A stretch of 37,541 nt of DNA, taken from UHGV virus genome UHGV-0082335. One strand, written 5' to 3'. The position numbers and the translations under genes are program-made. Of the stretch, positions 1,335 through 34,011 are shown one piece after another (position 1 is the first letter of the stretch; the number at the start of each line of letters is the position of its first letter). Under the pieces are notes generated by a model. It saw only the letters and a list, made by a program, of their open reading frames with translations, was not told the origin of the DNA and made no database searches. The DNA is from a virus.

Positions 1335-3338
1335 TCAAATCAGCCCATAAATAACATTATGCAAATGAAGAGAGCCTGCTTCACCGGAAACATCAAAATC
1401 AATCCTAACTTTGCTTGCTCCAGGAGGAACAATATCTATTAATGCGTAGAAATTCCATGTGGAGCCTAGTGGAATTGTAAATGTTGCTTTTCCCTGAACA
1501 GAGTTCCCTTCTTTATCAAAAAACTCAATACCAGAGATTGTTGTCACTTGATTCTTAGCCCAAAAACCTAACTGGAAATATCGTCCTGGTGAGCAGTCTG
1601 AGCACTCCTGATAAAATTTTGCAGATGCTCCTATAGATGGTATTGCTACATACAAAGACCTGGAAAACATAATATCATTTGGAACATCAGAATCCGTTCC
1701 TGCTGTAACAACACCTGAACCAGTTTGTTGAAGGCTCCAGTTAGAGTAGTTTAAAAACTGTCCACTTCCATTTGATAGCGAATTTATGTATGGACTAACT
1801 ATGTTCCCTTTATCCCACTGAGTTGTTATAAATCCAGATCGTGGATAGCATCCATATGACATTATTTTTTTACTATTACCTCCAACTACCTGTCTAGTTG
1901 CTGATCCTGTCGCCAAATCCATTTGGTCAAATAAAGGCAATGAGCAATTTGTTAATGAAAGTACTGAATCATCATTTACAACAAACGGAACTGAACTATA
2001 TCCAGAGGGAGTAAGTAGCGTTGTATCTTTAATGCTTATTCTTGTGCTTCCAGATGCAGAGAACGCCACAAAGCTTTGACCTGGCTGAAACTCAATATTT
2101 CCACTTGAGTAAACAACGGTTGCGTTATCTTCAATAAAAACAGTAGAATCAAAATAACCTTCTTTCTTACCTGATGGCATAGAGCAACAGTTAAAAATAA
2201 ATTGACCATTTCTAATTGTCAATGGACCTCCATTATCAACAACCCAACAATTATTAAATGTCATTACCTCGCCTGAGTTTGATGGAGAATTAAATATAAT
2301 TGTGTTGTTTAGACATCTTGATATTGTTACTTTGTCAAATAAAATTCTATATGAATTATCAAGAAACTCAATTCCAGCAGATGATATGAATGAAGAATTA
2401 CTTATTCTTAACTCTGATAATTCACCAGTGCCAATACCTCCAAGTAAAATCTTTTTAGATCCTAGCATCTTAAAAGATATGCCATCTAAAATTGATGTTG
2501 CATTTATTTCATCCCTATTATCATAAGAAATATTAGAGTTGCTTAACCTAATTGCATAATCGCCTGATATCCCATTAATCTCAGTTAAAACGCATTTATT
2601 CGATCCTCTTATCCCACCCTTCGCGAAATCAATATCAATTAAAGACGAGAATTCTCCACTACATGGAACAACGCAATCATAACCTAGAGAGTTTATTTTA
2701 TTAATAAATAATGCAATATCCCCAGCGCCGCTGTAACCAGCGTCATATACAGAAAACTCAAGGCTTGGGTTTATTCTCTTCCAATTTACACCGTTACCTT
2801 CTAAAACCATTACGTTATCAACTGCAATTGACTTGTCTACAGCTACAACAAACCCACCACCAAGTTCGAGTCCGGATACGTATGATTTTAAATATAATTT
2901 ATCAGATATCGACATTCCTTGTATATCTTTAAGGGAGTTAGCGCTCTCTACCATTCCAATGTATTTGTATCCAATATTACTTGATAGTTTTATAGATAAC
3001 TGATCAGGATCATACTTCAGCACATTAGGAAAATAAAACTGCTGCGCACCATATGCATCATAAACAGCCATAGAATGGCCTTGCACAGTTACGAACTTGG
3101 CAATCTGCCCGTTATATACCGGGTAACCAGCAGCGTTAATGATGATTGGTTGCGAAACAGGAACGTGAGAACCGTCTTCGTTTTCCACATAAACCTGAAT
3201 CTGGTTTTCAGGATTTACCGGGTCAGTGTCAATTTTACCGATATAAATTTTGCCATTGGCTACGGCTTTAAAAGAACGAGCCATAGTGAAGAGTTGCGAA
3301 GGCATCGATACGATCACATTGGCTGTAATGTCTGTCAT
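1335..3338 (-). CDS. Tailspike protein (667 aa): P22 gp9-type N-terminal head-binding domain fused to a divergent receptor-binding domain
   Basis: First ~110 aa ([46 protein letters not shown]...LKYDPDQ) match the P22 tailspike head-binding domain as I recall it; the remainder is unrelated to the P22 endorhamnosidase domain and is Ser/Asn/Gly/Ile-rich, consistent with a beta-helix. Confidence 0.9.
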
Positions 3339-3438: not shown

Positions 3439-4317
3439 TCAGTAGTTATGTACTGAAGGAGGCAATTCTTTATTCTTAAGTCTCATCCATGCGGAAAGAT
3501 TCGTTGGTCCGTCTGGCTCATTAATATCAACATCTCGTGTGTGGTTTATTAAAACGTCTCTCGCCATTCCGATAACATACGAGAATTCATGACCGTAGTC
3601 GTAGCATCTGCCGGAATAGTTCGATTGAATTTGTTTTAGCGCCGGATACAGTTCGCGGAATAATGCCTGTGAGCGGTTGGCATAATCCCATAACCATACA
3701 AGGCTGTTTGCTTCTTTTGCAGAAAGCTCGTTGGTTTTCTTCTCTTGTTTGCCAATGAACTCACCTTCAAGCACTACCCTGTGGATGTACTCTACGGCCA
3801 GCGGGATTTGTTCAATTGAAAGTTCATCAATGCTGTCAATACCAAAACGCTGATGAACCATATTGTATGCATCGTCATAGCGAAGTCCTTTCTTTCCTAC
3901 CAGCATGTTTACTGCATCGCGTAGCGGTGTTCTTTCCTCAACAGTGGTTTTCTTTCCTTTTACATACTCGCCATGTTTGCGAATTGAAGGCAGAACTTCT
4001 GCTGTTACCCACTTGCGGAATTTGTGCGGGACTGAACCTTTATTGACTGCATCGCGGCAGCGCAGAACCAATGTATACATACCTGATTCGCTCACAATGC
4101 TTAGATTCTGCTCACCACCAAGGGTGTAACTTAAAGTTACTCCCTTTTCATCGTCATCAAGTGCAGTAAGCGCCTTGCGTGAGTTAGTCAAATCTAAAGC
4201 ATCACAAACATCTTTAGCTACAAACCACGGCTCACCGCACTTGTTGATGACGCGGATTTCACTGTCGCCGAATTTGAAGATGGTGAAATCGTTTTGTGCC
4301 TTTGCTATACTTTTCAT
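3439..4317 (-). CDS. ant: Antirepressor Ant (292 aa)
   Basis: N-terminal antirepressor-type domain ([16 protein letters not shown]) and the position immediately downstream of arc, as in P22 immI. Confidence 0.85.
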
Positions 4318-4383
4318 GTCAATATTTCCTAATCCGATTTGTTGATGCCGAAGCCCTGACTGTTACAGCAGTTGGGGCTTCAA
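4314..4383 (+). ncRNA. sar: Candidate sar-like antisense RNA covering the ant RBS and the arc-ant intercistronic region
   Basis: Inferred by analogy with P22 immI. Possible promoter GTGAAA-17 nt-TATACT (-10 at 4302-4307) inside the ant 5' end; hairpin GAAGCCC...GGGCTTC at 4349-4381. No direct evidence of transcription. Confidence 0.3.
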
Positions 4384-4385
4384 CT

Positions 4386-4547
4386 TTACGCACCAATGCG
4401 CCCTTCCTTCTTAAAGCTTTCCATTACTCGCTGATAAATCTCAGAATTAACAGACCGACCATTTTCTTCCGCCACCTTGCGTACCAAATCCAATACTTCT
4501 TTAGGCCACCGCAAATTGAACTGTGGCATTTTGCTCATTCCTTTCAT
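4386..4547 (-). CDS. arc: Arc repressor (53 aa; true start at the internal ATG 4547, not ORF start 4610)
   Basis: MKGMSKMPQFNLRWPKEVLDLVRKVAEENGRSVNSEIYQRVMESFKKEGRIGA is essentially the P22 Arc sequence as I recall it (ribbon-helix-helix). Confidence 0.9.
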   Translation of the reverse strand: MKGMSKMPQFNLRWPKEVLDLVRKVAEENGRSVNSEIYQRVMESFKKEGRIGA

Positions 4548-4561
4548 GTTCACCTCACAAT

Positions 4562-4582
4562 ATAGGTCCACGGTGGACCTAT
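4562..4582. promoter_or_regulatory. Mnt operator (Omnt), perfect 21-bp palindrome
   Basis: ATAGGTCCACGGTGGACCTAT is perfectly self-complementary and matches the P22 mnt operator as I recall it; it sits at the predicted Pant start site. Confidence 0.8.
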
Positions 4583-4586
4583 TGAG

Positions 4587-4615
4587 AATATAGTAGAGTG
4601 CTTCTATCATGTCAA
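4587..4615 (-). promoter_or_regulatory. Pant promoter (-35 TTGACA 4610-4615, -10 TATATT 4587-4592) with the Arc operator (4590-4610) in the spacer
   Basis: Consensus -35 and near-consensus -10 with 17-bp spacing on the minus strand; the spacer ATAGTAGAGTGCTTCTATCAT matches the 21-bp Arc operator as I recall it. Confidence 0.7.
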
Positions 4616-4637
4616 TACACTAACTTGGAGTGATGGC

Positions 4638-4892
4638 ATGGCTAGAGATGATCCGCACTTTAACTTCCGTATGCCTTTGGAAGTAAGAGAAAAATTGAAA
4701 TTAAGAGCCGAGGCTAACGGAAGGTCAATGAACTCTGAGTTATTACAAATCGTTCAGGATGCACTATCAAAACCATCACCGATTACAGGATATCGCGACG
4801 AAGCTGAACGCTTGGCTGATCAGCAGGCTGAGCAGTTCAAGGCTATAGTGTTTGAGACACTTAAAAAGATTTATGAAAAGGATTTGAAATGA
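4638..4892 (+). CDS. mnt: Mnt maintenance repressor (84 aa)
   Basis: MARDDPHFNFRMPLEVREKLKLRAEANGRSMNSELLQIVQDALSKPSP closely matches P22 Mnt as I recall it; GGAGTG RBS; divergent from arc across the operators. Confidence 0.9.
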   Translation: MARDDPHFNFRMPLEVREKLKLRAEANGRSMNSELLQIVQDALSKPSPITGYRDEAERLADQQAEQFKAIVFETLKKIYEKDLK

Positions 4893-5224
4893 GATTTCTA
4901 TCACTGTTCTTGTTAGCAGTTGTCTCTTCTTCCAGTGCTGAGCTGCGCGAGCTTCAAACGGGTAATGACCTTCTTTACAACATTCAACAAGGTAAAAAGG
5001 GTGATGATTTTTCATCGCTTTACATTACTGGATATTTGCGCGGAGTAACTGACTCATTGATACTAATTGGTTCTCTATGTCCTCCTGATGGCGTTGACAT
5101 GTATCAATACACCGATATCGTTGAGAAATATCTAAACAAAAACCCAGAATCAAGAAATGAGAGTGCAGTTATACTAACCGCCCTAGCAGTAGGAAAAACA
5201 TTTCCGTGCAAAAAGAATCAATAA
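4889..5224 (+). CDS. Small secreted protein (111 aa), start overlaps the mnt stop (ATGA)
   Basis: N-terminal signal peptide MRFLSLFLLAVVSSSSA; helix-like mature region with two Cys (SLCPPDG, FPCKK); visibly AT-rich; translationally coupled to mnt. Confidence 0.6.
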   Translation: MRFLSLFLLAVVSSSSAELRELQTGNDLLYNIQQGKKGDDFSSLYITGYLRGVTDSLILIGSLCPPDGVDMYQYTDIVEKYLNKNPESRNESAVILTALAVGKTFPCKKNQ

Positions 5225-5239
5225 CAATAAGGGCTTAAA

Positions 5240-5629
5240 ATGAAATTGATTATAGCAATGGCTTTCCTTGTCTTCTCGTTTTCTGTCTCAGCAGAGTGCT
5301 GGGTCGTTGGAGATATGCACGGAATAAGCTATTCAGAACGAAATAATTTTCAACCGGAAGAAGATGGTTTTAGTGGAACATTCATCATTAAGACAAACGG
5401 TGAAGATGCCAGTATCACATATTCTGGGACGGATGCGGGCGGCATGGCTTACAAAGCATTGTCTAAAAACTCCATCATTGGAATCGGCGCGAATGGCGAA
5501 ACTCAACGAGTTATCGACTCATGGGTAATACATCCTAATGGAACAGTTTTAATGTCGAAAACCATTTCTGGTTATGGGAATATGGATTCAACCAAAGCTT
5601 TTGTTGGAAAAGTAAAAAGAAAATGTTAA
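5240..5629 (+). CDS. Small secreted protein (129 aa)
   Basis: Signal peptide MKLIIAMAFLVFSFSVSA; mature protein begins EC..., ends ...KRKC (two Cys), Gly/Ser/Thr-rich; AT-rich; RBS-like AAGGG upstream. Confidence 0.6.
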   Translation: MKLIIAMAFLVFSFSVSAECWVVGDMHGISYSERNNFQPEEDGFSGTFIIKTNGEDASITYSGTDAGGMAYKALSKNSIIGIGANGETQRVIDSWVIHPNGTVLMSKTISGYGNMDSTKAFVGKVKRKC

Positions 5630-5653
5630 CGATTGAATCCAATTCCCCATACG

Positions 5654-7495
5654 TTACTGCTGTGTTGCCTCAGTAGCAAGCAGCGGCCTGATGGCATTTG
5701 CAGCGTTACTCAACGCTCTTTCATAGGCTGGCGTTCCAGCTTTAGTGTTTGCCAGACGTAAGAGAGCATTCCTTGCTGCTTTGGACTCATACAAACGCAT
5801 CATTGCACCAAAGCCAGCCTCAAGCCCCATTGATACACCAAGAGTCGCAGTTGCGCCAATCGTCCTTATCCTGTTGGCTTGTGATTGCCCCGTCTGAGTT
5901 ACTACATTTGCGGTGTCTGACCTTGCTGTTTGCTGTAGAACTTCATGAAGAGCATCAAGCTCTTTCATGTGCTTTCCAGAAAAAATAGTGTTGTAAATTT
6001 CACCGCCTGACTGAGATTTCAGCTTATTAACTTCAGTGATGAACTTGGCTGGAGAGTCACCGGCCTTTTCCGCTATTTTGCTGACGTAAGCTGCACGCAT
6101 AGCATCTTTCCCTTTATCATCCAGGGCGCTCCATATTCGTTTCACGTCAGATGGTTTTCTGCTTAATACAACGGTATTTATAAGTTCAGGACTGGCTTCA
6201 CTGCTTGCCTTGTTGAGCTTGTTAGCAATGTTTTTATTAAGCACCTTATTATAAACGTTTGCATAATCAGAATTTGCTTTAAGGTATTTTGCTGCGTCTG
6301 ATGCACCGAGGTTTTTAGCAACTGCGTTACGAAGGTCTTTTGACATTGCATTCTCTACCATATTGGTAGCTGCTTTTGCCTGGTTGGGGAAGACCATAGC
6401 ATCTCCCTGAACATTAGATCTAAATGCTGTTCTGTGCTGACGCAAGAGATCAAACGTAACATCCAAATCAGTTGCAGGGTTTGCTAATTCTTCACGTAGG
6501 TTACGCAAGGATGTAAGCAGGCTTTGATTGGCAGACGTCCCAAGCCGTTCCTGTCTTGCGATCGCTGTATTCAGAGCATTCATGGTATTTGTGGTATCAA
6601 CTGCGGCATTACCCATTTTATTGGTGACGTCATTGATAACAGCGCCAGCGGCATCCTTCCGCCCCCTTAACGTGGTGGTAAGAGATTTCACCACATCATC
6701 AGGGTTGTACTCACCAAAACGGTCAAAATAATTACTTACCAGCTTACTACGCGTTGCATATTGCTCCGCTCGCTTTGAGCCTGTCCCGAGCAAAGCCCCC
6801 TCGGCATCCTGAGTTAGGCCGCGAGTGAAAGCATTTTTCGGCGGGATAACATCAGATGTCATTGGTGTCACGCCCATCGATTCTGATGTGGCAATTTTCT
6901 TCGCCACTTCTGGCGCAATATCACCTTTTATAGCCGTTATTCCACGCCCTATTCCCTTTGCTGCTGCGGAAAGAACACCCTGAGTGGCAAGGTTAACTCC
7001 GGCATTTTTAGCTGCATTTTGTGCGAAATCGCCTTTCTGATTTGCGGCCTCTGCCAGTGATCCAATAGCCATGCTTCCTGCCGTTCCAACTCCTGGAACT
7101 AAATACCCACCAATTGTTTCACCGGCTTGCGCGTAGGGGTCTGTCGGTCTGTCTACTGGACGATAAACATCATCCAAAACCTTGGGTCCACCAAGCCCCT
7201 GACTGATTGCATTAATCAGACTTGCGCCGCCCTGCAATACGTCAAATGGTATGTTTACCAGACCACGACCAGCCTGTTCTGCAATTTGCCCTGCACTTTG
7301 ACCACCAGTGAGCCAATCGCCAGCTTGTTGCATCAATGATGGTTCTTCCCGTGTTGGTGCATTATTGGCCTGATTAACTGTTTGTTGCTGAACAGCCTGA
7401 CCAGCAAAATACTCATCAATGGCGGTGCCAATATCTTCGGTGCTCGTACCATCAGGAAAGGTAAATGTCTTACCGTTTGCAGTTACTTTCATCAT
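5654..7495 (-). CDS. Ejection (injection) protein, P22 gp16 homolog (613 aa)
   Basis: N-terminus [32 protein letters not shown] and size match P22 gp16 as I recall it; position 16-20-7 conserved. Confidence 0.85.
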
Positions 7496-8907
7496 TCCAC
7501 CGTAAATTGAATGCCTGATTTTGAGGTATATGATCCAACCTGATTCCGTGGTTCTCCTGAAGGTGTCGAATCTTGTGCTGGCGCTGCGTCAGTATTCATT
7601 GACATATACCGCTTAACGGCACTCCCCAATGATTCACCTTTTTTAACATCCAACCCCAATATCTGACCGCCATTACGCGATTGTCCAGGGTTGCCATTCG
7701 CGCTCATCCACTCGGCTTTAAACTCATTAAACTGCGCGTTTCGTCGCTCAAGGTTTGCCATTGCATCAAGCCATCTTGCGACCGTCTCAGGGTTATCCAT
7801 GTCAGTTGGCGCACCCTGTCGAACGATCTCAACGTCTTTATCCGTTGCTGGGCCGGGAGGTAGGAATTTAAGAACCTGACTGTTAACAAGGGCATTTTGG
7901 CGAATGCGCAAATCACGCAATGTTGTATCGCTTCCGGTAAGTTTTGCGAACATGTTCTGTGCGTTACCGAACAAACCTGTCGTTGGTTTTTCTGCTCTGA
8001 ACTGTTGAGCAAGCGCACTCATAGAATTGGCTGAGTTTGATGATGCTGTAGCATTGTTTACAGCCGTCTCGATGCCTTTTTCCATGTTTACTGACAGCTT
8101 AGGTGCTTCGCTAATCAACTGCTGAGCCTTTTCCTGCGCTTGCTGCATCTTAAACCCGAACTCTTGCTGATCCAGAGCCAAGCGTTGTGCTGCGATATTG
8201 TGCCCAGTCATTGCTGACTGATAGGAAAGGTTTTGCCCTCTCGCCTGAAGTGCTTCACCAGCCTGATTGCTGCGGATTGTCTCTGCCAGCCTGCCTCGGT
8301 CAATCTCACGACCAGCCATCTTGTCCTGAACAGCAAACGCCTTTTCTGGTCCAAGCGCACCGAGAGACATAGTAGTCAGCATGTGTGATAGCTGCTCTGG
8401 ATTCTGGATACCTGTCTGAATCATCCAGTCAGCATTAGCACCAACGCGATTTAACCTGTCCTTGTTGTCAGTAATGAATTTACTGTAGGCTTCCGGTCCC
8501 TGAGAAAGAGCGACGTTAGCCCTCATGGCTAAATCGCCCATATCGTTGCGTTGCTGATCATTAAGACCGGAAAACGCCTGTTGTGCCTGTGCAACAAACG
8601 CTGGATTTTCCTGGGCAAACTTAAATAGTCCCGATGGATCACCAGAAGCCCATGCATCAGCGTGAACCTTATTGAACGCACTAATAGCTTTCTGTTGCTG
8701 TTCCTGATTGTAAATATCAGCAACTCCAGCCAGACCACGTAACGCGGTCAGGCCAACGTTATTTGCACCTGAGCGAGCCAGTTCATTGTTTTCGCGGATC
8801 AGACCAAGCGTTGCGTTAATGTCGCTTGCCTTTGGCGCATTCTCATTTTGCGTACCGATGCCAGCCAGAAAACCACCAGAATTAATACCCTGTTGCCACG
8901 TAGCCAT
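7492..8907 (-). CDS. Ejection protein, P22 gp20 homolog (471 aa)
   Basis: Size and synteny with P22 gene 20; ATGA overlap with the gp16 gene. Confidence 0.8.
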
Positions 8908-23677: not shown

Positions 23678-24036
23678 ACGTTCTCCAGTTCGGTGATTTT
23701 TATTCCAAGCCGTCCGCCTGGTACTTTCACACCACGAATTACGCGAATGTCATCGAATTGCTCGTCGTCTTCCGCAAATCCGGCGTGGATAAGGGAGTCG
23801 AGTAAACCTTTCAGGATGTTGTCGAGGTCGCGGCGGCGGGAGTCTGGAACGTCTGCGATGACTTTGATACGGAGTCGTGATTTGGTGAAAATGTCTAACT
23901 TGAGTTGGCGGATGATTTGCTGGACGTCTTTTCGGTATTTCTGGCCTTTATCGCTGATGTAGTATTGGCTTCCCCGTCTTCGCCAGTAGGTATTCAGCGA
24001 CGGTGGGTACGGAAGTGTGAATCTGTATTCTGCCAT
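23674..24036 (-). CDS. rusA: RusA-family Holliday junction resolvase (120 aa)
   Basis: Same length as E. coli RusA with the conserved DSRRRDLDN motif. Confidence 0.85.
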   Translation of the reverse strand: MAEYRFTLPYPPSLNTYWRRRGSQYYISDKGQKYRKDVQQIIRQLKLDIFTKSRLRIKVIADVPDSRRRDLDNILKGLLDSLIHAGFAEDDEQFDDIRVIRGVKVPGGRLGIKITELENV

Positions 24037-31002: not shown

Positions 31003-31047
31003 ACAAAAAATACATCTTGTGCATGGATGATTTTAGTACAGAGCGTA
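30978..31047. promoter_or_regulatory. OR operator cluster: three TAC-N5-GTA sites
   Basis: TACGATATGTA (30978-30988), TACATCTTGTG (31011-31021, imperfect), TACAGAGCGTA (31037-31047); the same motif lies in the PL spacer. Confidence 0.45.
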
Positions 31048-31064
31048 ATAATAAGGGTATGAAA

Positions 31065-31718
31065 ATGAAATGGTATGAACTGGCTAGATCCAGAATGAAA
31101 GAGCTCGGCATAACTCAAGAGAAGTTAGCCGAAGAGCTTGGTATGACGCAGGGTGGAATTGGTCACTGGTTGCGCGGATCTCGTCATCCATCTCTTGACG
31201 AGATTGGTGTGGTGTTTAAATACCTTGGTATTGATAACGTCTCATTCAACCACGACGGTACATTTTCACCTGTTGGCGAATACTCATCTGCCCCCGTTAA
31301 AAAACAATATGAGTACCCTGTTTTTTCTCATGTTCAGGCCGGTATGTTCTCGCCTGAGCTTAGAACCTTTACCAAAGGTGATGCGGAGAGATGGGTCAGC
31401 ACAACCAAAAAAGCCAGTGATTGTGCGTTTTGGCTTGAAGTTGAAGGTAATTCCATGACCGCGCCAACAGGATCCAAGCCAAGCTTTCCTGACGGGATGT
31501 TAATTCTCGTTGACCCTGAGCAGGCTGTTGAGCCAGGTGATTTCTGCATAGCCAGACTTGGTGGTGACGAGTTTACCTTCAAGAAACTGATCAGGGATAG
31601 CGGTCAGGTGTTCCTACAACCACTAAACCCGCAATATCCAATGATTCCATGCAATGATAGCTGTTCCGTAGTAGGGAAAGTTATCGCCAGCCAGTGGCCT
31701 GAAGAGACATTTAGTTAA
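31065..31718 (+). CDS. cI: CI-type prophage repressor, HTH plus LexA-like S24 peptidase domain (start ATG 31065; ATG 31059 also possible)
   Basis: N-terminal HTH ([20 protein letters not shown]); C-terminal domain ...[50 protein letters not shown]...[11 protein letters not shown] closely parallels P22 C2 as I recall it. Confidence 0.85.
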
Positions 31719-31749
31719 CAGCCTCACCACTCTAAAACACACAACAATA

Positions 31750-31778
31750 ACCCGACCTTAGCGTCGGGTTTTCTTTTT
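31750..31778 (+). terminator. Intrinsic terminator downstream of cI
   Basis: ACCCGAC-CTTAGC-GTCGGGT stem-loop followed by TTTTCTTTTT. Confidence 0.75.
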
Positions 31779-31844
31779 CCAAAATATAAACCCATTAAAT
31801 ACAAAGCGTTATAAAAAACTAAACCATATTTAGAACATTTTGTA

Positions 31845-31873
31845 TTGACTCAGTAAAGTACACATCGTACTAT
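31845..31873 (+). promoter_or_regulatory. PL promoter (-35 TTGACT, -10 TACTAT) with OL operator in the spacer
   Basis: TTGACT-17 nt-TACTAT; spacer holds GTACACATCGTAC (TAC-N5-GTA motif, 31859-31869); AT-rich upstream region. Confidence 0.65.
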
Positions 31874-31918
31874 TTAGCCATCAGCAGGAAGCTGGAAGCC
31901 AAACGGAACAGACTGGCA

Positions 31919-31966
31919 GGCTCTTTAAACAACGTCGAACACTCGACTACGTGGCTGAAAAGCCAG
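31919..31966 (+). promoter_or_regulatory. nutL: boxA (GGCTCTTTAAACAAC) and boxB hairpin (UGGCU-GAAA-AGCCA)
   Basis: rrn-like boxA at 31919-31933; hairpin at 31953-31966 with the same GAAA loop as nutR and a compensatory stem change. Confidence 0.6.
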
Positions 31967-32063
31967 ATCACCCAACCACATAAGCTGTGGGATGCAATGC
32001 CGAAGCAACCGTCTCAGGAGGGGCTTCGAGATTGCATCGCCAAAGTTTATTCGGGAGGAATCT

Positions 32064-32336
32064 ATGTCCAGAAAAACAGAATTTAAAGGAACCGCAGCTT
32101 CTCGCCGTAGAGCTCGTCGTGCAAATCTGCAAAGTCAGGAGGCGATCAGCTCCGACAAGCTACACAGGCCAACCCCTTCACGAGTGGTCTTGCAATGCAA
32201 GCGCAAACCAGCAATGAGAGCAGAAGTGATAACTCTGACAACGTTGACCAGAAAATATGAAGGTTCAACTTGTCTTCCGAACGTAGCCATTTACGCGGCA
32301 GGCTACCGGAAATCAAAACAACTGACGGCGAGATGA
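32064..32336 (+). CDS. N: N-like antitermination protein (90 aa; start at internal ATG 32064)
   Basis: Arginine-rich motif near the N-terminus (TAASRRRARRANLQ) as in lambda/P22 N proteins; GGGAGG RBS; first gene after PL/nutL. Confidence 0.7.
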   Translation: MSRKTEFKGTAASRRRARRANLQSQEAISSDKLHRPTPSRVVLQCKRKPAMRAEVITLTTLTRKYEGSTCLPNVAIYAAGYRKSKQLTAR

Positions 32337-32394
32337 CTTGTGTTGGTCGCCAGAAAATGAAATTAGGCAGCAAACCACTTATTTGAGGTGAGAT

Positions 32395-32865
32395 ATGACA
32401 AAATCATGGAGCGTACCTTTTCCTGAATCAGAAACTGAACATGATGGAATGCCTGTTTTCTGGAGATTCCAGGCGACAGTTGAAGAAGATGGAATCAAAA
32501 TATTAGCACTTCAATATATAGCTTTTCATCAGACAGAGCATTATGCATGGTTGGTTCCTGCGCATTGGATTGTTAATTTTAAACCAGCACCAAATCAGTG
32601 GTTACAGGAATGGAAACAAAGGAGAAATAGATATGCAATTAAGAAAGTAGCAAAAAATGCAGAAAGATCTTTTGCATTCCCAACGAAGAAACTTGCCATT
32701 GAGAGTTTATTGCGCCGGAAGAAATACCATTTAATGAGAATCAAACAAGATTTGGCTGTTGTATCAACTCTTGTTGATGGGATGAAGAATATTGATACAT
32801 CAACACCAGATATTGAATATAACTTTGGACACAACCAAGAAACAGAAAATTGGGTATTCTACTAG
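32395..32865 (+). CDS. Hypothetical protein (156 aa), AT-rich moron-like gene
   Basis: RBS GAGGTGAG; markedly AT-rich; followed by its own strong terminator; no recognisable motif. Confidence 0.6.
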   Translation: MTKSWSVPFPESETEHDGMPVFWRFQATVEEDGIKILALQYIAFHQTEHYAWLVPAHWIVNFKPAPNQWLQEWKQRRNRYAIKKVAKNAERSFAFPTKKLAIESLLRRKKYHLMRIKQDLAVVSTLVDGMKNIDTSTPDIEYNFGHNQETENWVFY

Positions 32866-32890
32866 GCCGCATAGTCGGCCTTTATTTTTG
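32864..32890 (+). terminator. Strong intrinsic terminator after the 156-aa ORF
   Basis: AGGCCG-CATAGT-CGGCCT followed by TTTATTTTT. Confidence 0.8.
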
Positions 32891-33047
32891 GCATAAACAA
32901 CAGAATAAACACTGCACTGTGTATTCATTCCAACGAGTGAATACACGGAGCAATGTCGCTCGTAACTAAACAGGAGCCGACTTGTTCTGATTATTGGAAA
33001 TCTTCTTTGCCCTCCAGTGTGAGGGCAATTTTTTTGACGGAGGATAT

Positions 33048-33359
33048 ATGAAATTACGTGTCTGGCATATCCCGCAAGTACCTATGAAGCCGTTCATTGT
33101 AGAAGTGGCAAGTGTTGAAGAGGGTGTTCGCCTGATGGACGCACTGGCTGATTATGACGCCTTTCAGTATGACAACAACATCAAGCCTGATTACTGCAAT
33201 GCTAACGGCCTTGAGATGTGGGATGAGAGCCTTACCGATGAAGATTTATCAGAGATGGGGCTTACTGATCGCTGGGTGGATTGGTACAGCGAATGCCAAT
33301 GTTACGACGACCCACGTAAATATCTCGAAAGCCTGAAAGAAGAAACATCAGCCGCCTAA
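33048..33359 (+). CDS. Hypothetical acidic protein (about 104 aa; start at internal ATG 33048)
   Basis: ORF in the early-left operon (MKLRVWHIPQVPMKPFIVEV...); contains a CQCYDDP motif; function unknown. Confidence 0.5.
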   Translation: MKLRVWHIPQVPMKPFIVEVASVEEGVRLMDALADYDAFQYDNNIKPDYCNANGLEMWDESLTDEDLSEMGLTDRWVDWYSECQCYDDPRKYLESLKEETSAA

Positions 33360-33434
33360 GTGCGGCTTTACCGCATACCAATAACGCTTCACTCGAGGCG
33401 TTTTCGTTATGCAATCAAACAGAAGGAGCATCCT

Positions 33435-33605
33435 ATGCAACAGTTCGCTATTGCAGGGGCGGCATCGGTTCGCCCTTTCAACCCGATTTTATCGGTGCAG
33501 CATTCACGAAAAAATATTTTAACCGGAGCAGACTTTAAACAACCTCGCGTTAAGAGCTTGCTGGATCGTCTTGTTGAGTTTCTGAATCAAAAGGTACAGC
33601 CATGA
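33435..33605 (+). CDS. cIII: CIII-like small protein (56 aa; start at internal ATG 33435)
   Basis: MQQFAIAG... start and ..SLLDRLVEFLNQ.. segment resemble lambda CIII (MQYAIAGW..., SLLERITRKL...); AGGAG RBS 7 nt upstream. Confidence 0.45.
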   Translation: MQQFAIAGAASVRPFNPILSVQHSRKNILTGADFKQPRVKSLLDRLVEFLNQKVQP

Positions 33606-33766
33606 AAAAACCAACTTACGAGGAACTGGAAGAAGCCCTGAAAGAGCTTAGAAGAATGGCTTTCGCCCGACGCACTAACTCTCACAACTGCGGCCCATTT
33701 CAGTACTCTGATTTATGCGAGGACATCATTGAGGTAACTCAACTGATTAAGGTCGTTAAGCAATGA
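33602..33766 (+). CDS. Small hypothetical protein (54 aa)
   Basis: Hand-translated ORF not in the supplied track: MKKPTYEELEEALKELRRMAFARRTNSHNCGPFQYSDLCEDIIEVTQLIKVVKQ; ATG overlaps the cIII-like stop. Confidence 0.35.
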   Translation: MKKPTYEELEEALKELRRMAFARRTNSHNCGPFQYSDLCEDIIEVTQLIKVVKQ

Positions 33767-33840
33767 GCATTGCGGATACATGGTCAGACGAAGAATTCAT
33801 TCGTCAGATGAAAGAATTAATCGGTAACGAAGGAGATATT

Positions 33841-34011
33841 CATGTCACTTGCAACCACAGTGAAGGAGAGCAAGTTACAGAGACGCATGTACACGCAGCA
33901 GGCGTTAATGTATCGCCAGAAGGGAGATCGTGAAGGTGTTCGCGTATTTTTAAATGCGGCAAAGACTGAAGTATTAAATCAGCGTTATTTCCTTGGGCCA
34001 TGTCCATTCTG
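33841..34011 (+). CDS. Small hypothetical protein (56 aa); an alternative 56-aa ORF at 33763-33933 overlaps in another frame
   Basis: Strong RBS AAGGAGA 5 nt upstream of ATG 33841; product MSLATTVKESKLQRRMYTQQALMYRQKGDREGVRVFLNAAKTEVLNQRYFLGPCPF. Which frame is expressed is unresolved. Confidence 0.3.

Follow-up and report, generated by a model that had tools for sequence, protein, structure and literature searches.

The gene that follows N and its linkage to the early left operon

The window analyzed here is the whole 37,541-nucleotide stretch of the virus genome UHGV-0082335, which, to judge from its sequence, is that of a P22/HK620-like phage or prophage of E. coli. Its immunity region is oriented so that the + strand corresponds to the leftward direction of lambda. 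The element under consideration, ORF156, is a 156-codon gene located directly after the antitermination gene N. It is an already catalogued, common but uncharacterized phage gene residing in a known variable slot, and what is new about it is solely the function still to be found and the unsolved fold of its product, which we tentatively place among early counter-defence or host-takeover factors.

An earlier note, made from the DNA alone, had described an open reading frame (ORF) with a good ribosome-binding site, and this description stands: the frame runs from ATG to TAG and, as read from the sequence, is preceded at a distance of 4 nt by a Shine-Dalgarno sequence (Table 1). The visible difference in composition from the flanking genes is borne out as well by windowed values of GC content and of GC at third codon positions (GC3). 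ORF156 has a GC content of 36.3% and a GC3 of 28.7%, whereas the neighbouring genes fall between 44 and 49% GC (N, 49.1%; the gp17 homolog, 47.1%) and the whole window has 47.1%; the corresponding z-score is -2.55, with equally AT-rich 471-bp stretches making up 2.7% of those in the window. ORF156 is thus compositionally foreign. Its homologs elsewhere are AT-richer than their own loci as well, and AT-richness is therefore a trait of the family.

In comparisons with homologs at 57–64% protein identity, synonymous divergence (dS) is saturated and nonsynonymous divergence (dN) is 0.2–0.34, so that a dN/dS ratio is uncomputable for these distant homologs; for one close pair it is 0.24. Because dS is saturated against the distant homologs, ORF156 is to be regarded as a real gene under purifying selection. 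The full 156-codon frame is uninterrupted in all 80 related IMG/VR loci, and 27 columns are invariant over 24 aligned close-family sequences from several genera of Enterobacterales.

A scan of positions 31600–33700 with a simple sigma-70 consensus detected no promoter besides the pL-like site just past the cI terminator, the position of which corresponds to that of the annotated pL of HK620. This site is followed by a probable nutL, assigned from the known boxA/boxB layout of lambdoid nut sites, with its hairpin flagged by the terminator/hairpin scan, and then by N. The latter scan found no + strand intrinsic terminator between 31770 and 32864. Since ORF156 has no promoter of its own, starts 58 nt after N and is separated from it by no intrinsic terminator, it should share the pL transcript with N. 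The description of the locus as a self-contained cassette is not sustained by this arrangement, as the sole promoter-like site in the region is pL and the spacer in front of ORF156 is the tail of another N gene.

That spacer, positions 32333–32386, encodes out of frame the C terminus of a lambda-type N (…TCVGRQKMKLGSKPLI), and a recombination joint between N alleles can therefore be placed inside the 3' end of N. The remnant is nearly identical, with one difference, among the window, H-19B, and BP-4795; N genes of the H-19B type and of the HK620 type stop early, in a different frame, over this lambda-type relic. The ORFs upstream of ORF156 in three further loci (L020, L036, and L088) end in ...GVTCVGRQKMKLGSKPLI. 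In the loci with a lambda-type N, the stop codon of N lies 8 nt before the ATG of ORF156, and the 3' end of N and ORF156 therefore form one joined unit.

The gene that follows ORF156 had been taken for a cIII-like one, but it is a homolog of P22 gene 17 (gp17), with cIII located one gene further.

Table 1. Features of the left operon around ORF156 and elsewhere in the window
Feature	Positions	Strand	Details
cI	31017-31718		immunity region, + strand order
cI terminator	31749-31770	+	
pL-like sigma-70 promoter	31845-31873	+	TTGACT, 17 nt spacer, TACTAT
Probable nutL	31919-31947	+	boxA-like GGCTCTTTAAACAAC, then boxB-like hairpin GTCGA-ACAC-TCGAC
N, antitermination protein	32064-32336	+	90 aa; PF25694 N_peptide, E 8e-32; phrog_271 N-like, E 1e-25
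Lambda-type N 3' remnant	32333-32386	+	out of frame, encodes MTCVGRQKMKLGSKPLI and then a stop; the N-ORF156 "spacer"
Shine-Dalgarno sequence of ORF156	32385-32390	+	GAGGTG
ORF156	32395-32865	+	156 aa, ATG start, TAG stop
Hairpin 1	32864-32891	+	AGGCCG-CATAGT-CGGCCT then TTATTTTTGG; overlaps the TAG stop; stem-loop 32864-32881
Inverted repeat	32917-32948	+	14-bp stem, -18.8 kcal/mol, z -5.6; inside the backbone element
Hairpin 2	33007-33035	+	8-bp stem and T7, -13.2 kcal/mol, z -3.6
gp17 (P22 gene 17 homolog)	33048-33359	+	PF17420 GP17, E 7e-56; phrog_1510
Hairpin overlapping gp17 stop	33350-33367	-	
Terminator-like hairpin between gp17 and cIII	33383-33402	+	
cIII	33435-33605	+	phrog_550, E 6e-19; gene after gp17
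Small ORFs and Erf-type recombination module	downstream of cIII	+	
Small ORF, between cIII and Erf-like gene	33602-33766		54 aa; phrog_32687 (no assigned function)
Small ORF, overlapping the preceding one	33763-33933		56 aa; phrog_2123 ("recombinase", position of P22 arf)
Tailspike region	1335-3338	-	667-aa tailspike gene; lowest GC of the window
Ant-like ORF	3439-4317		
sar RNA	4319-4385		Rfam RF00262, 65.6 bits
Arc/Mnt-like ORF	4638-4892		

The family of ORF156, its predicted fold, and its slot

Although ORF156 had been called an orphan, its sequence matches the profile of phrog_1636 over the full length (residues 1–156 on positions 1–156 of 156, E 1.1e-111). In a tblastn search, 88 phage records proved to contain it, 85 over the full length, with 98–99% identity to its counterparts, annotated or not. 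It is 98.7% identical over all 156 residues to Gp45 of HK97 and 99.4% identical to L0079 of 933W, ORF20 of Min27, and the corresponding ORF (ORF18) of BP-4795. The member of PHROG 1636 in phi24B is vb_24B_11c, and H-19B has an unannotated homolog; further carriers include Stx2 phage 86, many Stx1a and Stx2a phages, and the BASEL phage Bas106. Among 5426 complete E. coli genomes, 598 contain the gene, in up to four copies per genome and always annotated as "hypothetical protein". Within the window, the hidden Markov model (HMM) of the family found no paralog, and there is one copy per locus.

Homologs at 54–85% identity are present in Pectobacterium, Brenneria, Cronobacter, Rosenbergiella, and Symbiopectobacterium. 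When 1.8 billion representative sequences were searched with a profile, 100 proteins of 130–160 residues were returned at E <= 1e-3, and the wider family comprises about 100 clusters at 50% identity. The remote relatives, found in both temperate and virulent phages, belong to phrog_13631, phrog_25384, and phrog_28215, none of which has an assigned function; 77 of 91 members match phrog_13631. No domain fusions or names were encountered among the family members, all homologs lack a functional annotation, and none is conserved with a known housekeeping role. Scans of ORF156 and the 91 members with Pfam, NCBIfam, and PADLOC gave nothing above noise, with no family of the defence models in PADLOC-DB 2.0 matching ORF156 at E <= 1, and a search of the literature on the named members (vb_24B_11c, phrog_1636, HK97 gp45, and 933W L0079) found nothing about the family.

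The product of ORF156 is a soluble protein of 18.6 kDa with a pI of 9.07, devoid of cysteine and of any transmembrane segment (maximum 19-residue hydropathy, 0.62). Its charge is unevenly distributed, as the 44 residues between 74 and 117 include 16 Lys or Arg and only 2 Asp or Glu (pI 11.7), whereas the N- and C-terminal parts are acidic. Lys or Arg is found in 70–95% of the 91 family members at positions 24, 83, 84, 87, 92, 98, 108, and 109. The signature of the family, present in ORF156, consists of an aromatic residue at 23 followed by Arg or Lys 24, Gly33, Glu or Gln 46 followed by Thr47, the segment K83-K84-V85-x-K87, Ala94, Ala101, Lys109, and an aromatic residue at 155.

With an alignment of the 91 diverse sequences, AlphaFold produced a model of ORF156 with a pLDDT of 95.3 and a pTM of 0.82; an earlier run with 24 close homologs reached a pLDDT of 60 and was not used. 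The model starts with a three-stranded sheet (strands 19–30, 33–46, and 50–55), continues with short helices and a strand comprising residues 83–86, and is completed by a long helix (98–130) and an ordered C-terminal tail. In the signature, the aromatic residue and the Arg or Lys that follows it are placed in the first strand, the glycine in the hairpin turn, and the pair of Glu or Gln with Thr closes the second strand. No structural relative of this model was found among solved structures, and a search of the PDB with two sequence profiles of the family gave best E values of 0.43–0.74, which is the level of chance. Small β-barrels similar to Tudor or KOW domains (PipX, and the C-terminal domain of UvrD/PcrA) scored far below significance, covering about one quarter of ORF156 at 5–10% identity and lacking Foldseek support. 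In a library of viral models, 12 uncharacterized proteins resemble ORF156 at E < 1e-3; the named matches come from phages of Erwinia, Rhizobium, Sinorhizobium, Delftia, Cellulophaga, and Tenacibaculum.

The placement of ORF156 in the ral/sieB hotspot by the earlier note is correct, this being a variable accessory slot between N and gp17/cIII across lambda, P22, HK620, CUS-3, and mEp235. In P22, the order of genes is 24 (N), an oppositely oriented sieB/esc served by a promoter of its own, ral, orf78, orf87, 17, and c3, and in lambda it is N, sieB on the opposite strand, ral, ea10, and cIII. The slot is occupied by hkaQ and hkaP in HK620, by ral and a membrane-protein gene in CUS-3, and by nun and a 207-residue ORF in mEp235. 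Same-strand residents with a noted function (ral and 17) help the phage against hostile hosts, whereas sieB, on the opposite strand, protects the lysogen. In the window, ORF156 is the sole gene between N and gp17. Over the 80 loci, it is preceded by at least four N alleles or by small extra ORFs, and the next gene can be Ea10 (20 loci as the first ORF, 30 by tblastn), gp17 (10 loci), cIII (18 loci), or others; the gene moves among phages that differ in their N allele, downstream genes, and virion type. No homolog of ral or sieB was detected in the 80 loci or in the window, where tblastn with the Ral sequences of lambda, P22, and CUS-3 gave no match.

Distant homologs are found in other surroundings. 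In prophages of Pectobacterium and Brenneria, as well as in locus L101, the homolog is located at the far end of the early left operon, just before xis-int, and in phages of the Bas81 type it opens an operon that continues with ParB-like and RusA-like genes. LIET2, phi_KPN_H2, and a Vibrio phage have it within clusters of small co-oriented genes, with RecE, a replication initiator, or a DNA methyltransferase close by. Other prophage homologs, located in early left operons, adjoin RdgC, a methyltransferase, an anti-restriction gene of the Lar type, or an exonuclease together with a Sak4-like ATPase. No integrase or repressor gene is present within the stretches examined of Bas81, LIET2, phi_KPN_H2, and the Vibrio phage. 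These contexts fit a function in the lytic cycle, and they do not separate counter-defence from DNA metabolism. A remote homolog in a metagenomic phage (L099, positions 4098–5888) stands in a row of four genes encoding 154, 144, 144, and 142 residues, the other three of which do not match the profile of the ORF156 family.

The junction downstream of ORF156 and other parts of the window

The hairpin and T-run that overlap the end of ORF156 (hairpin 1) had been described as a strong terminator belonging to the gene itself. Both elements exist, but the hairpin is moderate, with a 6-bp stem, a folding energy of -9.6 kcal/mol, and a z-score of -1.8, and the ownership could not be upheld: hairpin 1 is present in 8 and absent in 64 of the 72 ORF156 loci with enough downstream sequence, and it follows unrelated genes in CUS-3 and mEp235. 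It is common to these two phages and Bas106. In H-19B, BP-4795, and HK97, the alignment shows that about 40 bp including hairpin 1 are missing and that homology resumes right after, up to hairpin 2. The latter, annotated as a putative terminator in HK97 and found as an exact-type match in 48 of the 72 loci, is the conserved first terminator downstream of ORF156 in most phages, and a better terminator than hairpin 1.

More than 200 lambdoid records share the sequence from position 32864 on without showing the end of ORF156. No match in these records begins before 32863, which excludes the last 17 bases of ORF156, and the maximum query coverage is 79%. In the two records inspected, the element follows ral and a membrane-protein gene (CUS-3) or nun and the 207-residue ORF (mEp235). 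As it is common to lambdoid phages with unrelated upstream genes, the region 32864–33035 is a shared backbone junction. This element of about 170 bp, composed of hairpin 1 (its first 28 bp), an inverted repeat, and hairpin 2, is conserved almost to the base among lambdoid phages whose genes on either side are unrelated. The inverted repeat with the 14-bp stem located inside it is invariant in the window, CUS-3, mEp235, HK97, H-19B, and BP-4795, and the whole region folds far better than its shuffled versions (z -5.3). It looks like a module-junction ("boundary") sequence combined with a double terminator, and it could give rise to a stable 3' RNA fragment; an Rfam scan of the window had sar RNA as its only match, with none in this element. 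The picture of the locus is corrected accordingly, in that the terminator and the structured element are not part of a cassette but a recombination junction that the left operons of lambdoid phages have in common.

Further hairpins are located around the end of gp17, one on the - strand overlapping its stop codon and a terminator-like one between gp17 and cIII. Over a span of 550 bp, the left operon includes three or more intrinsic terminators, and the scan found seven terminator-like sites, compared with 2.0 expected from shuffles.

Approximately half of the bases between 12600 and 37541 match HK620 and related podophages at 96–97% identity. The left end of the window carries an integrase, a tailspike gene, ant, and the sar RNA, the antisense regulator of ant in the immI region of P22; an Arc/Mnt-like ORF lies nearby. 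The strongest low-GC island of the window, with a minimum of 29.7% in 471-bp windows, coincides with the tailspike region, where the N terminus of the encoded protein resembles a head-binding domain of the P22 type, which suggests a swapped receptor-binding domain. Additional low-GC spots occur near 4600–4800 and 23800–24000. On the other side of cIII, two small overlapping ORFs precede the Erf-like gene (Table 1). No kil homolog was recognized in the window at the place where other phages have kil.

Possible functions of ORF156 and comparison with known systems

The reading that we tentatively favour, while holding it with less than even confidence, is that ORF156 is an early counter-defence or host-takeover factor, immediate-early and non-essential, with its basic face turned to a polyanionic target. 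Because no promoter separates it from pL and N, ORF156 is an N-linked early gene, which would be transcribed from pL together with N and ahead of any terminator in the left operon. Transcription at that point would yield an immediate-early product that needs no antitermination, and HK620, annotated as N-hkaQ-tL1, presents a parallel anatomy. The protein would then act for the infecting or induced phage rather than for the lysogen. As soon as infection begins, its basic face may bind nucleic acid or an acidic protein of the host, making ORF156 a putative functional parallel of its slot-mates Ral and gp17. The earlier note had offered anti-defence, abortive infection, or exclusion by a moron. 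The gene is indeed an accessory one in a hotspot, and of the three functions anti-defence fits best, because ORF156 is on the sense strand of pL with no promoter of its own, its homologs occur where no integrase or repressor is in view, and sieB is an opposite-strand gene with its own promoter; exclusion is disfavoured by the strand and by the missing promoter. We can speculate further that the HK97 gp45 family, spread over temperate and virulent phages of Enterobacterales, forms a previously unrecognized and structurally new class of immediate-early counter-defence proteins, made together with N before antitermination, replacing Ral in its slot, and neutralizing nuclease-type or nucleic-acid-sensing immunity through the basic face, although we regard this more specific proposal as doubtful.

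Several points weigh against a counter-defence role. Known anti-restriction DNA mimics are acidic, whereas ORF156 is basic. The distant homologs have many recombination and replication genes in their neighbourhoods, which would suit a role in DNA metabolism just as well, and the mutual exclusion with ral may just represent alternative cargo in one slot. As for the timing of expression, a simple sigma-70 consensus may miss the weak or non-canonical promoters that can occur in AT-rich DNA, and any Rho-dependent termination between N and ORF156 would escape a scan for intrinsic terminators. No published phenotype or experiment for any member of the family was found in the literature. The sequence of ORF156 was not found in those parts of the supplementary texts of Silas et al., who screened 200 accessory genes, that were accessible, and orf184 of that study, which originates from a ral-containing region, is not the same gene, as no predicted model in the portion available starts with M-T-K-S-W.

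An alternative that we consider possible, though less probable than an early counter-defence or host-takeover role, is that ORF156 is not an immune antagonist but a protein that binds nucleic acid and assists the phage itself in recombination, replication, or transcription/antitermination, for example, a recombination or replication cofactor, a binder of DNA ends or structures, or a modulator of RNA polymerase or of N antitermination. The conserved basic face would suit such a protein, as would the tight linkage to N, the position in an operon that leads in the window to Erf-type recombination genes, and the remote homologs that stand beside RdgC, YqaJ/DUF3799-type exonuclease, AAA_24 (Sak4-like), RecE, ParB-like, and RusA-like genes. 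The distribution of ORF156 is patchy among similar lambdoid phages, however, with the records of lambda, P22, and HK620 lacking it, which argues against a core function. The accompanying recombination systems vary (Red, Erf, RecT, and Sak4 types), and no Pfam DNA-binding family matches ORF156 even at E = 1.

It is unlikely that ORF156 is a moron in the strict sense, expressed from the prophage for superinfection exclusion or abortive infection in the manner of sieB, rex, or nun. The foreign composition, the terminator directly after the gene in the window, the frequency of ORF156 in E. coli prophages, and the presence elsewhere in the slot of sieB, nun, and the putative exclusion gene hkaP are all consistent with such a role. 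Yet pL is repressed in the lysogen, and no promoter-like site is found between pL and ORF156. The exclusion genes of the slot, sieB and hkaP, are on the opposite strand, with an annotated promoter of its own for P22 sieB, whereas ORF156 is on the sense strand of pL. The terminator is a shared backbone element that is usually absent beside the gene, homologs occur in phages with no lysogeny genes in the stretch examined, and no PADLOC model matches. ORF156 also has no transmembrane segment, unlike the hydrophobic N-terminal stretches of lambda and P22 SieB. Among the coordinates from the accessible part of the phi24B lysogen-expression table, none matches those of the homolog (7395–7865).

Finally, a selfish or decaying passenger that serves neither phage nor host is a very improbable reading of ORF156 in spite of the failure to find an annotation or phenotype for any member and of truncated family copies in the databases (P0009, P0023, P0027, and P0036), since it is contradicted by the selection seen in the saturated dS, the low dN/dS of the close pair, the invariant columns, and the intact frames described above, and the approximately 100 remote clusters share a signature and a co-evolution signal sufficient for a model with a pLDDT of 95.

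Roughly one complete E. coli genome in nine, together with HK97 and the best-known Shiga-toxin phages (933W, H-19B, phi24B, and BP-4795), thus carries a gene that has no name, no Pfam family, and no solved structural relative. The slot in which it resides has also given Ral, SieB, and Nun, and its product appears to be made as infection begins, which makes ORF156 an inexpensive and well-placed candidate in the search for new counter-defence or host-takeover activities. HK97 and the BASEL phage Bas106 already offer tractable genetics, and any effect of ORF156 on how Stx phages are induced or on their host range would have a bearing on the spread of toxin genes.

DNA-mimic anti-restriction proteins of the Ocr and ArdA type have strongly acidic surfaces, in contrast to the basic product of ORF156. 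The morons of HK97 and HK022, reportedly defined by Juhala and Hendrix as units of promoter, gene, and terminator with foreign composition, are resembled by ORF156 in composition and, in the window, in the terminator-like hairpin right after the stop codon, but ORF156 has no promoter of its own and the terminator belongs to the backbone. SieB has no homology to ORF156, and its gene differs in strand and in having its own promoter; in P22 and lambda, sieB is located between N and ral, whereas ORF156 directly follows N, ahead of any intrinsic terminator. The hkaQ gene of HK620 occupies a similar position, right after N and before the first terminator (the annotated tL1), although its product is not matched by the HMM of the ORF156 family.

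Two slot-mates of ORF156 act for the phage. Gene 17 of P22, a counter-exclusion gene that, according to the P22 record, permits growth on a Fels-2 lysogen, is likewise an early accessory gene of the same operon and strand; its product is unrelated in sequence and acidic where ORF156 is basic, and, as both genes are present in the window, they are not alternatives. The ral gene of lambda, P22, and CUS-3 shares with ORF156 its slot and its strand in the pL operon; both are small, non-essential early genes, and they were never found together in the 80 loci and the window. Ral differs in being a Cys-rich protein of 64–66 residues with no sequence similarity to the Cys-less ORF156, for which no Pfam or PHROG match to Ral was obtained. 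The closest counterparts remain the genes of HK97, 933W, phi24B, and BP-4795, which encode the same protein at the same position directly after N and with the same upstream junction; the window differs from these phages in the presence of hairpin 1, in its N of the HK620 type, and in having gp17 downstream rather than cIII or Ea10.

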